Part shown: one piece after another, positions 12,210-21,928 of the stretch | How the letters are laid out: the number at the start of each line of letters is the position of its first letter | Numbering within the stretch: the first letter of the stretch is position 1 | Notes under the pieces: model-generated | What the model was told of the DNA's origin: nothing | The model's input: the letters and a program-made list of their open reading frames with translations, nothing else | Databases searched by the model: none | Source of the DNA: Thermoproteus sp. | GTDB taxonomy: Archaea > Thermoproteota > Thermoprotei > Thermoproteales > Thermoproteaceae | Direction: 5' to 3' | Length of the DNA stretch: 21,928 nt | Assembly (NCBI GenBank): GCA_049976425.1 | Contig: JBMFIG010000022.1 | Span: 1-21,928 of the forward strand | Translations under genes and position numbers: made by a program

Positions 12210-12571
12210 CTCTCCACAAGCCCCACTATTAGGTCCATGGCAGAGATACAACGGGCTGCCGTGGCCTCGCCGTACGGCTTGACGCCGCGGGCGGGGTACC
12301 GCGCGAGCACGTAATGCGGCTCCAGCCACTCAGCCTCTCTGTAGATCTCGTCGGGGACGTCCTTCCCTAGCCGCCGCAACACGTCGAGGAGCTCCGTGAG
12401 GCTGTGGGTGAACGGGTGGGATCCCGTGGCGTCTACGATAAGGCCCTTGAGGAGCATCTCCGCCGCTTGGTGGGCGTTGAAACACGCCGCGTTGTATATC
12501 GCCGATCTATACGCCAGCCGGGCCATCTTCATGAAGGAGATCCCCCTATCGAGCCAGTCCTCAAGCCCCAC
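12179..12571 (-). CDS. HEPN domain protein, partner of MNT
   Basis: YNAACFNAHQAAEMLLKG, THSL and HYVLARYP motifs. GTG start at 12571 with minus-strand TTTTTAA at about 12591-12597. Confidence 0.9.
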   Translation of the reverse strand: MGLEDWLDRGISFMKMARLAYRSAIYNAACFNAHQAAEMLLKGLIVDATGSHPFTHSLTELLDVLRRLGKDVPDEIYREAEWLEPHYVLARYPARGVKPYGEATAARCISAMDLIVGLVERWSGRSLPRE

Positions 12572-12646
12572 GTAGGTTTGGAGAAATGGATTAAAAAGTA
12601 GCGTTGGCCGGACAAACTTTATAGAGGAGGGCCTCGGTACCTTCTG

Positions 12647-13489
12647 GTGTCTGCCGACAAGGAGATGTCGATCTGGGAGCACCTCATGGAGCTAGCGACG
12701 AGGCTCAGGAGGGTCCTCGTCGTCTCGGTCATAGTCTTCCTCCTCACCCTCATGCCCACGCCGCGCCACTTCTCCGACCCGATGCAGTTCTTGACCGGCT
12801 TCTTCGTGACGGGCAACTTCACCACGTTGTCCTACGATATATTCTATAGGTATATTATAGAGCCGTCGATACATATAGCCTACACCAACATAGTCTTGAT
12901 CTCGGGCGACGTCTTCACGCCGTTCAACGCACTGCTGTACGTATCCCTATACTTCACCGTGTTGGCGATAGTGCCGTATCTCGTCTACGAGATCTGGGCC
13001 TACGTGAGGCCCGCCCTCTACCCCCACGAGATTAGGGCCGTCAAGAAATACTTGGCCTACGGCGTCCTCCTGTTCTATCTGGGCAACCTCTACGGCCTGG
13101 GCCTCATCTCCCGCTACTTCTTGAGGTTCTTGATAGACATCTCGTCGGTCCTCCCGGGCGTGACGCCCATATTCAACATAGGGTCTGTGGTGGATACGAT
13201 AATCCAGATCGCGCTTTGGTCCGGCGTCTTCTTCGAGGCCCCTATAGTGGTCGCCATATTGTCGGAGCTCTGTATGTTGAATCCCTGGGCCCTGGCCAGC
13301 TATAGGCCGGTGATATACGCCGTCTCGCTTATAATTATCGCCATATTCACGCCCGACGCGACCTTGATATCGGTCTTCCTGACCTTCCTGCCGTTCGCCG
13401 TGTTGCTCGAGATCGGTCTGGCCTACAGTAGGAAGATCGTCAAGAAGTGCCCCGACTACGCGTATATGCGGCCGAGCGGGAGTAGATAG
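12647..13489 (+). CDS. tatC: Twin-arginine translocase subunit TatC
   Basis: EMSIWEHLMELATRL, YEIWAYVRPALYPHE, FEAP and FTPD motifs; about 6 TM. Confidence 0.95.
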   Translation: MSADKEMSIWEHLMELATRLRRVLVVSVIVFLLTLMPTPRHFSDPMQFLTGFFVTGNFTTLSYDIFYRYIIEPSIHIAYTNIVLISGDVFTPFNALLYVSLYFTVLAIVPYLVYEIWAYVRPALYPHEIRAVKKYLAYGVLLFYLGNLYGLGLISRYFLRFLIDISSVLPGVTPIFNIGSVVDTIIQIALWSGVFFEAPIVVAILSELCMLNPWALASYRPVIYAVSLIIIAIFTPDATLISVFLTFLPFAVLLEIGLAYSRKIVKKCPDYAYMRPSGSR

Positions 13490-20277: not shown

Positions 20278-20285
20278 TTTTTTAA
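20278..20285 (+). promoter_or_regulatory. T-tract/TATA element; probable terminator of the ATPase gene and promoter of the TnpB-like gene
   Basis: TTTTTTAA directly after the TGA at 20277 and 20-27 nt upstream of the ATG at 20305. Confidence 0.5.
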
Positions 20286-20304
20286 GACACCTCCCGACAG
20301 GCAT

Positions 20305-21036
20305 ATGCTGACGTACAGCCTCAAATGCGACGCCGAGAAGGCGAGGGAGGCGATCGGCGGCGACTACGCCGTGGTCGAGCTGGGAGGGCCCGTCAAGCTG
20401 GTCGAGTCGGTCGTGTCGCTCTACCTCGACGACATGCCCATATGCATGTACAAGTCCTGGCGCCTCACCTACACCGATCTGGCCCAGCTGGGCCTATCAA
20501 AGGCCGAGGTCTACGTCAAGGGCGGTAGATCCGTCGTGAGGCTTGTGAGGGACGACGAGAGGCTCGGGCTGAGGGAGCTGATAGAGGGCAGTCCCCTCAT
20601 AGTGCACGCCATGGACGTCAACGAGGCCGGCATAGCCTACAGAGTCTTCAGGCTCGGCGGATACACTGAGCTTCTGGCCAAGGGAGTCGCGTCGAGCATA
20701 TCGGAGGCCTTCGTGCCCAAGAAAGGCGTCAACATACTCGTGGCCGACATACCTATGATGCCGCAGTACAAGAGGCACCTCGAGGACCTCCTCGCCATCG
20801 GCCGGGAGCACTTCGTGGAGCTCCACACGACCATGCTCTCCGACGTCTGCCCCGTCTGCGGCGGGAGGATGGTGAAGAAGGGCCGCCTCGTCTACTGCCC
20901 CCGCTGCAAGGTCCAGCTCAATAGGGACGTCAACGCCGCGTGGACGCTGGCCAGGAACATAATAAGGAGGCTCGGGAGGATGGAGCAACTCGCCGAGCTG
21001 CGCGAGGTCTTCATGCTCTCCTACCCCGACGTCTGA
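20305..21036 (+). CDS. Shortened TnpB (IS200/IS605 OrfB)-derived protein with Zn ribbon
   Basis: RuvC-I-like HAMDVNE, RuvC-II-like ILVADI, CPVCG...CPRC Zn ribbon, RuvC-III NRDVNAA. Only 243 aa. No tnpA or IS ends seen. Confidence 0.8.
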   Translation: MLTYSLKCDAEKAREAIGGDYAVVELGGPVKLVESVVSLYLDDMPICMYKSWRLTYTDLAQLGLSKAEVYVKGGRSVVRLVRDDERLGLRELIEGSPLIVHAMDVNEAGIAYRVFRLGGYTELLAKGVASSISEAFVPKKGVNILVADIPMMPQYKRHLEDLLAIGREHFVELHTTMLSDVCPVCGGRMVKKGRLVYCPRCKVQLNRDVNAAWTLARNIIRRLGRMEQLAELREVFMLSYPDV

Positions 21037-21601
21037 GTATACGCCGGGCCTCCAAGAGGCCCCGCAGAGGGTCCACGCCGCACCCCAGCCTGGCCACGTC
21101 GAGCAGGACCCCGCCTGCAGGGTCGGGGCGCGCCTCAGCCCTCGCGAAGAAGTAGAGACCCCGCATCTTCACCACGGCGACGCCGTCCCTTAGGATCACG
21201 CCCCTGGGCCTCAACGCGGGCATCCTCGACCGGGAGAACCCCTCGACGGGGCCCACGGGCCCTATGGGCTCGAGGCAGATCGAGACCTCCCTAAACTCGG
21301 CGGCGAGGATGGGGCCCAAATCCGGCGGGAGGGGCCTAGATATCGGGAAGCACACGGACAGATCGGCCAGGAGGGTCCCGCCGAGCCAGCCCACCGAGAG
21401 CACGCCGAGGCTGGGAAGCTCCGAGGGGCATAGAGAGGCGCCCCACTCGCCCGCTATCTCCCGGGCGTAGGCCCGCGCGCGGTCGAGGAGCGCAGAGAGG
21501 GGGGCGGGCTCGCTATATAGCAGTGTGTAGCGGATCCTCCGTTGCGCTATCCCCTCTATGTAGGCCCTCCGGACAGCTACCGGCTCCACCAACGGGCTCA
21601 A
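21011..21601 (-). CDS. Hypothetical protein
   Basis: 196-aa ORF filling the gap with host-like composition. The start could instead be TTG 21592 or GTG 21589, given the TATA at 21613-21620. Overlaps the TnpB-like gene end by 26 nt. Confidence 0.7.
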   Translation of the reverse strand: MSPLVEPVAVRRAYIEGIAQRRIRYTLLYSEPAPLSALLDRARAYAREIAGEWGASLCPSELPSLGVLSVGWLGGTLLADLSVCFPISRPLPPDLGPILAAEFREVSICLEPIGPVGPVEGFSRSRMPALRPRGVILRDGVAVVKMRGLYFFARAEARPDPAGGVLLDVARLGCGVDPLRGLLEARRILRRRGRRA

Positions 21602-21640
21602 TAGAGCGCATCTTTATATACCCCCTCCCCAGCCAGACCT

Positions 21641-21724
21641 ATGCCTCGGGAGGAGGAGTGGGAGGAAGAAGAGGAGCTCTGGGAGGAGTTCGAGGAGGAG
21701 TGGGAAGAGGAAGAGGAGTGGTAA
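21641..21724 (+). CDS. Hyperacidic 27-aa Glu/Trp micropeptide
   Basis: MPREEEWEEEEELWEEFEEEWEEEEEW*. TTTATATA at 21613-21620 gives leaderless spacing, GAG/GAA synonymous variation is present, and a T-tract follows the stop. Confidence 0.7.
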   Translation: MPREEEWEEEEELWEEFEEEWEEEEEW

Positions 21725-21823: not shown

Positions 21824-21928
21824 TGGCGGGCCCGGCGGGATTTCTAGGCGGCTTTGCCTGAACCCGCGACCTCCGCCCCACTAGGGACTACGGCTCAGAA
21901 GGCCGCCGCTCTTCCATGCTGAGCTACG
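21824..21928 (-). tRNA. tRNA-Arg(TCT) with two non-canonical introns (45/46 and 56/57); first ~5 nt outside the window
   Basis: D arm GCTC/GAGC, anticodon arm GCGGC-CTTCTGA-GCCGT (TCT at 21899-21897), T arm GCGGG-TTCAAAT-CCCGC after splicing, encoded CCA at 21826-21824. Introns at 21871-21887 and 21844-21859, each with BHB-type geometry. Confidence 0.93.

Follow-up and report, generated by a model that had tools for sequence, protein, structure and literature searches.

A miniaturised TnpB derivative without REC is a fixed, single-copy host gene in Thermoproteaceae

Is a TnpB-like gene of only 243 codons the remnant of an insertion sequence (IS), or a gene that its host has retained, and in the latter case could its product still act as a nuclease? 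The question is raised by the reading frame at 20305..21036 (+) of a 21,928-nucleotide stretch of Thermoproteus sp. DNA (GenBank assembly GCA_049976425.1, contig JBMFIG010000022.1), which was analysed as a whole and is referred to here as the window. An original prediction, made from the sequence alone, described the product as a domesticated, miniaturised TnpB derivative with an altered RuvC site. Here, we compare the gene and its product (the mini gene and the mini protein) with full-length TnpBs, with structures, and with the genomes of its family, class and phylum. The proposed ancestry and domestication are supported by these comparisons, while the reading of the RuvC site is revised.

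The frame opens with ATG and runs intact for 243 residues with zero internal stops in the list of open reading frames (ORFs), as the original prediction had it. All of the motifs that it listed are present at the residue numbers given, namely MLTYSLK at 1-7, AEVYVKGGRSVVRLV at 67-81, MDVNE (which includes D104), LVADI (A147 and D148), RDVNAA (D208) and the cysteines C182/C185/C198/C201. The codon usage is indeed host-like, with a GC content at third codon positions (GC3) of 0.885 as compared to 0.83-0.88 in the neighbours. Proteins of the family are basic (median isoelectric point, pI, of 8.9), and their C-terminal helix is strongly conserved (L232, R233, E234, F236 and P241).

The sole Pfam match to the mini protein is PF07282 (Cas12f1-like TNB), which covers residues 179-214. 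Its score of 32.3 bits lies above the cut-off of 26.3, and the resemblance of the zinc ribbon and RuvC-III stretch therefore exceeds chance. NCBIfam TnpB models match the C-terminal 40 residues only and score far under their cut-offs. For profile comparisons we used an alignment of 22 homologs (A1, also the basis of the AF2 model and the profile searches) and a local set of 13 full-length TnpBs (ORFs of 362-518 aa) drawn from the class of the source genome. The two alignments were matched by hhalign with a probability of 99.07 and an E value of 1.5e-18 over 150 columns (query 69-226). The matched span includes the last WED hairpin of the full-length TnpBs (residues 69-82 of the mini protein), RuvC-I, RuvC-II, the zinc ribbon and RuvC-III, and it is interrupted in the mini family by a large gap at the helical insert that TnpBs carry between beta3 and beta4.

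The AF2 model built from A1 (pLDDT 90.5, pTM 0.88) extends this picture to the N-terminus. Seven N-terminal strands are predicted (3-7, 21-26, 30-33, 36-41, 44-50, 64-72 and 75-82), followed by a RuvC domain of five strands (98-106, 109-117, 122-129, 142-148 and 170-174) and four helices, with the ribbon placed between beta5 and the helix that begins at R207-D208. According to PMC10097598, ISDra2 TnpB has a seven-stranded WED barrel, with REC (13-116) inserted between strands 1 and 2, and a RuvC domain of five strands and four helices, with TNB between beta5 and alpha4. The mini protein thus resembles ISDra2 TnpB (8h1j) in its RNase H-fold RuvC, in the RuvC-I and RuvC-III aspartates, in the CCCC TNB after beta5 and in the seven-stranded WED-like barrel. 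It differs in size (243 versus 408 aa) and in the region that holds REC, where only 13 residues (8-20, with one 8-residue helix) separate the first two WED strands in the model. This short connection takes the place of a REC of ~104 aa, so REC is gone from the mini protein, in keeping with the in-frame loss that had been proposed. The distance from RuvC-I to RuvC-II is also reduced, to 44 residues versus 87 in ISDra2 TnpB and 102 in a local TnpB; the original prediction was right about the shortening and one residue off in the spacing, which it gave as 43. Taken together, the alignments and the model indicate that both REC and the helical insert between RuvC-I and RuvC-II have been lost.

Foldseek searches with the model, which had been suggested as a check against TnpB and Cas12f, placed these proteins and Cas12g first. 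All eight PDB matches at E <= 0.001 are TnpB, Cas12g or Cas12f complexes (8h1j first at 4.3e-6, 8i3q, 8j12, 8j3r, 6xmf, 8j1j, 8iaz and 6xmg), and the alignments with TnpB and Cas12f span 271-292 columns with probabilities of 0.94-1.00. Among 21 BFVD matches at E <= 0.001, every named one except a putative HTH transcription regulator is a transposase or a Cas12f1-like TNB protein. The nearest ESM Atlas clusters, to be taken as a lead only, are Thermoproteota PF07282 proteins of 277-410 aa (scores 0.93-0.94). When the family profile was run against PDB chain sequences, it gave only weak, uninformative zinc-ribbon matches (TiaS, E 0.03; DNA ligase; the 'Transposase' 9j09, E 0.2). We also considered a defence-system reading and rejected it: in PADLOC the mini protein is matched by C-terminal Cas12-type models only and its neighbours weakly, and its PHROGs label is 'transposase'. 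On the combined evidence of PF07282, hhalign, AF2 and Foldseek, the mini protein is best described as a miniaturised TnpB derivative, with a WED-like barrel, a minimal RuvC and a TNB zinc ribbon, and the original assignment stands.

One of the weaker structural matches was Thermus RuvC (E 0.05, TM-score 0.44-0.49 on the target). Combined with the minimal architecture, this match would suit a reverse history, in which the mini protein is a relic of a pre-transposon host nuclease of RuvC plus zinc ribbon and never descended from TnpB. A bare RNase H-fold core of similar size is indeed what the mini protein shares with RuvC and RuvX (YqgF) resolvases. The resolvases, however, are without the WED barrel and the TNB insertion, TnpB/Cas12 features that the mini protein has kept, and the gene is confined to one archaeal family, whereas TnpBs are found in 116 of 251 genomes across the phylum. 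We regard such a relic as very improbable.

The distribution of the mini gene is that of a host gene. A match was found in 27 of the 29 Thermoproteaceae genomes, the source genome included, and the two without one are 73% and 61% complete. All 24 family genomes that are at least 90% complete carry one intact copy each. The source genome itself (99.4% complete) has one copy, and thus holds none of the near-identical extra copies that the original prediction had named as evidence against itself. Besides the mini gene, the source genome contains one long TnpB-like frame and one fragment. Further matches in the family genomes are C-terminal only and fall in long TnpB frames, with genomes G016 and G023 excepted. 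Neither 91 further genomes of the class nor 378 further genomes of a phylum sample gave a full-length match; eight of the former had TNB-only matches, and 11 of the latter had partial matches that began at query residue 129 or beyond.

Searches of larger collections agree with this range. Among 1.84 billion cluster representatives, phmmer found nine proteins at E <= 0.001, three of which are full-length relatives (243, 245 and 229 aa). A word-indexed search found 23 clusters, 22 of them with proteins of 237-243 aa at 60-100% identity; the 23rd is a 190-aa fragment that covers 78% of the query. The clusters are named 'transposase' or 'zinc ribbon domain-containing protein' and come from Thermoproteus and Pyrobaculum, with which the named records agree. 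Length is nearly constant, at 237-245 aa in 23 of the 24 full-length family clusters (outlier, 229 aa).

Selection and phylogeny were examined with the orthologs of three genera, a Thermoproteus-type genus, Pyrobaculum and a third genus. The ratio of nonsynonymous to synonymous substitution rates (dN/dS, Nei-Gojobori) is 0.061-0.119 in 20 of 21 Thermoproteus-type pairs, the remaining pair being saturated, and the median over 48 Pyrobaculum pairs with dS < 1.5 is 0.096. These values, from orthologs that are syntenic and single-copy, are what the original prediction had asked of a domesticated gene. A maximum-likelihood tree of 26 orthologs requires two label changes for three genera, which is the minimum, and the branches that split the two larger genera have moderate support (90/60 and 60/70). 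Locus L027, the extracted end of which has no stop, was excluded from the dN/dS and codon analyses, and L026 from the codon-entropy columns. L025, L028 and L029 (the insertion form of G023 and the broken copy of G016) were left out of the tree, the dN/dS estimates and the promoter counts.

These data bear on whether the gene is what remains of an IS200/IS605-type tnpB, in decay or truncated recently, without host function. Such a remnant would account for the 'transposase' names on some homologs and for the second, broken copy in G016. It is at odds with the constant length, the single intact copy in 24/24 good genomes, a dN/dS of about 0.1, the genus-congruent tree and the conserved regional synteny. 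Signs of mobility are missing as well, as had been predicted: no Y1 TnpA was found in the source genome by a search that was positive in 6 of 14 reference genomes, and apart from a 10-nt hairpin within the downstream ORF nothing resembling the repeats of IS ends turned up. We give almost no credence to a remnant. The mini gene is a fixed, single-copy host gene that is vertically inherited, and the original view of an exapted gene rather than a decaying IS is upheld.

Variation within the family is worth recording in its own right. The second copy in the Pyrobaculum-type genome G016 (L028; contig C20, ~12456-13363) is 66-68% identical to the window protein and consists of two overlapping pieces, one that covers query 1-154 with one TAG and one that covers 92-243. 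This split suggests an internal duplication or frameshift, and hence a decaying paralog or an assembly mix. In G023 (L025/L029; contig C97, 3529-4347) a single 277-aa frame carries an insertion of ~32 codons after residue 94, and the homolog P0005 lacks 6 residues of this WED-RuvC linker; together they indicate that the linker tolerates indels. Two cysteines of the WED-like domain, C8 and C47 (codons 20326-20328 and 20443-20445), are invariant down to 42% identity and may form a disulfide pair. Such a disulfide would suit organisms with abundant cytoplasmic disulfides.

If the gene is kept by its hosts, is the RuvC site that it encodes still functional? The original prediction held that the RuvC-II glutamate had been replaced by Ala147, leaving an altered or dead site. 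That register was off by one. In both the hhalign and MAFFT alignments with the 13 full-length TnpBs, it is D148 and not A147 that falls in the column of the catalytic glutamate. The column itself is mixed in the local TnpBs, with Glu in five (VEDL, VENL, LEDL, VERL and IEYL) and Asp in eight (IVVD, VVID and ILVD). Two of the Asp-type full-length TnpBs are 93% identical copies within one genome, which suggests recent mobility and hence function. ISDra2 TnpB uses D191, E278 and D361 (PMC10097598).

Conservation around the site is strict. D104, D148, D208 and the four cysteines are invariant across A1, while position 147 is Ala or Val. Orthologs at 42-46% identity retain D104-V-N-E107, D148-x-P150, E172-L-H174, the four cysteines, R207-D208 and W213..ARNI, and D104 and D208 align with invariant Asp columns of the 13 full-length TnpBs. 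As judged from these alignments, D104, D148 and D208 most likely are intact metal-binding carboxylates, and the RuvC-II motif is a conservative Glu-to-Asp variant of the triad in a site that is probably active.

E172 and H174 lie on beta5 and are invariant down to 42% identity. PMC10691335 describes RuvC-II-rearranged TnpBs with a RuvX-like relocated glutamate, and the invariant Glu on beta5 recalls this RuvX arrangement. We considered E172 as a 'relocated glutamate' of this RIIr type but do not propose it as the replacement catalytic residue: three of the five canonical-Glu TnpBs also have a Glu nearby (VEV/IEV), and the MAFFT and hhalign registers differ at this point.

These observations also weigh on the idea of a nuclease-dead nucleic-acid binder or regulator, similar to TldR or Cas12m, in which the RuvC/WED scaffold would serve for binding only. 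A strict canonical RuvC-II Glu is missing, with Ala or Val at position 147, and many published fixed TnpB derivatives are inactivated regulators (PMC10691335, PMC10705468). TldRs, as described in PMC10705468, come from bacteria or phages, are dead as nucleases and work together with a guide RNA encoded next to them. The mini protein resembles them as a TnpB domesticated for a host function, but it has invariant acidic residues, and a guide locus was not found beside its gene. An invariant D148 in the catalytic column makes the nuclease-dead reading unlikely, as do D104, D208, E172 and H174, the persistence of which down to 42% identity would be unexpected in a dead site; moreover, full-length TnpBs present in several copies have this Asp too. 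The two options left by the original prediction are accordingly not equal, with the TldR-like binder now the less likely and a nuclease that uses D148 favoured.

A TnpB nuclease would be expected to come with an omegaRNA, and the mini locus was searched for one. Synonymous constraint was not detected within the gene: codon entropy at conserved residues is flat, at 1.12-1.36 bits per 20-residue window, and the 3' end (201-240) is no exception at 1.25-1.33. Counted from the stop, the next ORF starts at -110 to +104 nt in all 10 long loci, one of these being a probably spurious overlapping ORF. Rfam at gathering thresholds found in the window only a tRNA and an H/ACA sRNA, neither of which adjoins the mini gene. 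No cis omegaRNA is thus evident from the sequence, nor is there adjacent room for one. In this absence of an omegaRNA locus, of IS ends and of mobility, the mini gene differs from those of TnpBs.

The two Rfam matches are unrelated observations. The tRNA match (21827-21928, minus strand, 31.8 bits) is cut by the window end and spans 102 nt as compared to a 71-position model, for which reason the tRNA may have an intron. The H/ACA sRNA is PyrR201 (RF02801; 16424-16491, plus strand), with 59.5 bits, above its gathering score.

With no cis omegaRNA and no REC, the protein most likely acts without a guide of its own. It could nevertheless still be RNA-guided if the guide were encoded in trans, with an RNA or a partner protein replacing REC. 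IscB and IsrB depend on a bulky omegaRNA. Several features fit such an arrangement: the surfaces that hold the omegaRNA scaffold in ISDra2 TnpB, WED and RuvC, are kept in the AF2 model (PMC10097598), the catalytic residues are invariant, the median pI is basic, and some of these genomes also have full-length TnpBs and, presumably, the RNAs that go with them. The difficulty is that REC, residues of which are required for TAM (transposon-associated motif) reading and for the heteroduplex channel (PMC10097598), is absent, and the RuvC helical insert that contacts RNA stems is deleted. Adjacent non-coding space, synonymous constraint and a nearby Rfam match are lacking, and no candidate RNA was identified. 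We consider a guide in trans possible but doubtful.

The surroundings of the mini gene offer further clues (Table 1). The predicted presence of its own TATA box agrees with a T/A-rich box shortly before the ATG, a pattern kept in 21 of 26 orthologous loci as a window with at least 7/8 A/T centred at -36 to -16. A/T-rich 8-mers number 51 and 107 in the -32 and -24 bins, versus 3-13 elsewhere. The sequence suggests that the box is the gene's own archaeal promoter and that the mRNA is leaderless (a prediction), even behind the KaiC-like gene, which ends 27 nt before the mini ATG.

Table 1. Features of the mini gene, of its product and of the flanking genes (window positions).
Feature	Position	Strand	Basis or remark
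SPL/PA0069/Rv2578c-type radical SAM gene, 291 aa	18573..19448	-	PF04055, E 3.4e-19
KaiC/RecA-superfamily ATPase gene, 251 aa	19522..20277	+	PF06745, E 3e-14
T/A-rich TATA-like box, TTTTTTAAGA	20278-20287	+	Sequence; ~22 nt before ATG
Mini TnpB-derived gene, 243-aa product	20305..21036 (stop codon within)	+	ORF list, 23 homologous clusters, dN/dS
WED-like seven-stranded beta domain, residues 1-95	20305..20589	+	AF2 strands; hhalign, last hairpin
Minimal RuvC core beta1-beta5, residues 96-178	20590..20838	+	AF2, hhalign, MAFFT
D104 codon	20614-20616	+	
D148 codon	20746-20748	+	
E172 codon	20818-20820	+	
TNB zinc ribbon C182/C185/C198/C201, residues 179-206	20839..20922	+	PF07282; invariant Cys
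RuvC-III helix (R207-D208; ARNI) and C-terminal helix, residues 207-243	20923..21033	+	AF2, hhalign, ortholog alignment
D208 codon	20926-20928	+	
Convergent ORF, 196 aa	21011..21601	-	Overlaps last 26 nt of mini gene

Upstream, the order radical SAM (-), KaiC-like (+), mini (+) is found in 7/7 full-length Thermoproteus-type loci; each time, the KaiC-like gene immediately precedes the mini gene and has the same orientation. Seven of 17 Pyrobaculum loci have the KaiC-like gene instead on the other strand, 630-730 nt downstream of the mini gene. The radical SAM protein scores 136 bits with the NCBIfam model rSAM_PA0069, below its curated cut-off. In all 10 long loci its gene is at most six genes away from the mini gene (in L058 the mini gene was at first missed, as the ORF picker had kept a longer opposite-strand ORF), and in the third genus it is directly downstream in 2/2 loci.

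On the other side, the predicted convergent gene over the mini 3' end is present. It had no match in Pfam, NCBIfam, PADLOC or PHROG, and a homolog at 52-98% identity flanks 5 of 6 other Thermoproteus-type loci. The hairpin mentioned above (21043-21065) has a 10-nt stem that is 90% complementary and a 3-nt loop; it lies 7 nt past the mini stop, inside the 3' end of the convergent ORF, and might serve both genes as a terminator-like element. Farther on, a short Glu/Trp-rich ORF (ATGCCTCGGGAGGAGGAGTGGGAG...) at 21640-21724 (+) is preceded by a TATATA-like box.

Pyrobaculum loci have further recurrent neighbours. Eight of the 17 loci have a metallophosphoesterase gene (Metallophos_2) next to the mini gene and in the same orientation (seven downstream, one upstream); its product has 208 aa and matches PADLOC PDC-S10 (E 1.3e-20), and the gap is -8 to +56 nt. 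A gene for aIF-1A lies within 1.5 kb in 13 of the 17. The region is thus syntenic across the family, yet shuffled. Its recurrent genes may hint at nucleic-acid repair or processing; they may equally reflect inherited gene order.

We propose the following account. A descendant of TnpB (OrfB of IS200/IS605/IS607) was fixed in the chromosome of the common ancestor of the Thermoproteaceae (Thermoproteus, Pyrobaculum and the third genus) and has passed down vertically from then on. Three parts of TnpB are left in it: the WED barrel, a RuvC RNase H core pared down to five strands, and the zinc ribbon of TNB. Gone are REC, the part of TnpB that recognises the TAM and holds the duplex of guide and target, and the helices inserted between RuvC-I and RuvC-II. 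Catalysis, a competence that we infer from the conserved residues, would proceed via D104, D148 and D208, with E172 and H174 close by on beta5. The protein would then likely be a guide-less nuclease, specific for a structure or a sequence, that serves the nucleic-acid metabolism of its host and is possibly tied to the SPL-type radical SAM protein, to the KaiC/RecA-like ATPase and, in Pyrobaculum, to the metallophosphoesterase. On balance we lean, with modest confidence, towards this guide-independent, metal-dependent nuclease on a WED-RuvC-TNB core, as suggested by the alignments and the predicted fold. Guide independence and a role in repair or processing are the speculative parts of the account. 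A more far-reaching conjecture, which we think unlikely, has two forms: an RNA-guided protein with its guide in trans and an RNA or partner for REC, which would be the smallest natural RNA-guided nuclease scaffold, at 90-100 degrees C, or a guide-free repair nuclease that works with the RecA/KaiC-like ATPase and the SPL-type radical SAM protein.

Several points weigh against the account. The retained WED and RuvC, surfaces of the omegaRNA scaffold in PMC10097598, and the basic pI are compatible with an RNA partner in trans. The Foldseek TM-scores are low, at 0.28-0.34 on the query, as is to be expected with half of the target absent from the query. The N-terminal domain (seven strands, residues 3-82) is assigned as WED-like from the predicted structure and one hhalign hairpin only. 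An Asp in place of the RuvC-II Glu departs from the canonical triad, and the geometry of D104, D148, E172 and D208 is a prediction. An origin from an Asp-type TnpB lineage, which we considered, is not adopted: the A1 hidden Markov model scores canonical-Glu and Asp-type TnpBs alike among the 13 (22-29 bits), and hhalign E values of 4e-15 for the Asp-type subset (80 columns, beta4 included) and 5.8e-14 for the Glu-type subset (71 columns, starting after beta4) differ too little. The adjoining gene differs between genera, so the neighbourhood may be leftover synteny, and one Pyrobaculum query found no metallophosphoesterase in the source genome, which is not proof of absence. A homodimer prediction from A1 with two copies (score 0.00, mark 0.42, run without controls) is evidence neither way.

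How does the mini protein compare with what has been described before? Non-mobile TnpBs fixed in archaeal lineages have been reported (Altae-Tran et al. 2023, PMC10691335). They include, according to that report, a Sulfolobaceae 'GATase-TnpB' of ~280 aa, which has a wedge and an active RuvC only and lies beside a GATase gene, and a Halobacteria clade of ~220 aa with RuvC only. For such miniature archaeal TnpBs its authors propose a nuclease activity that is possibly RNA-independent. The present clade is like them in being fixed, non-mobile, lineage-specific, small and REC-less, with WED and RuvC/TNB, with catalytic residues apparently retained and without room for a downstream RNA. It differs from the Sulfolobaceae clade in its host family (Thermoproteaceae), its length of 243 aa, the Asp in the RuvC-II column and its neighbours.

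Two proteins of our own sample, L078 and L080, allow this difference to be examined. Both are ~280 aa and come from another family of the phylum, and at least one of them lies beside a GATase_4 gene; from this size and neighbour we infer that they belong to the published GATase-TnpB clade. They carry ALEDL and AIEDL, with the canonical Glu. Their hhalign match to A1 is confined to the TNB stretch (41 columns, E 2.4e-7), as compared to 150 columns with the local TnpBs, which points to an independent miniaturisation of the mini clade, parallel to that in Sulfolobaceae. No GATase gene was found among the mini-gene neighbours scanned against Pfam. The main text of PMC10691335 does not mention Thermoproteaceae or Pyrobaculum, and its Table S5 may list the clade. 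A literature search on TnpB and Pyrobaculum, judged by title and abstract, found nothing on the mini protein. The kind of gene is nonetheless already published in PMC10691335, and the finding is less novel than the original prediction held. Nothing yet indicates a new mechanism.

Cas12 descends from TnpB, which is itself a compact scaffold for genome editing. The clade described here brings an apparently independent miniaturisation, an Asp variant of RuvC-II and a hyperthermophilic origin. Some of its hosts are cultured and have complete genomes, e.g. Pyrobaculum oguniense TE7, which makes a biochemical test of a REC-less TnpB core feasible. A TnpB that has been stripped to WED, RuvC and TNB and yet kept by its hosts for tens to hundreds of millions of years shows what a minimal stable core of the protein can be. 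Such stripped, host-kept TnpBs also indicate that this core is useful beyond transposon homing.

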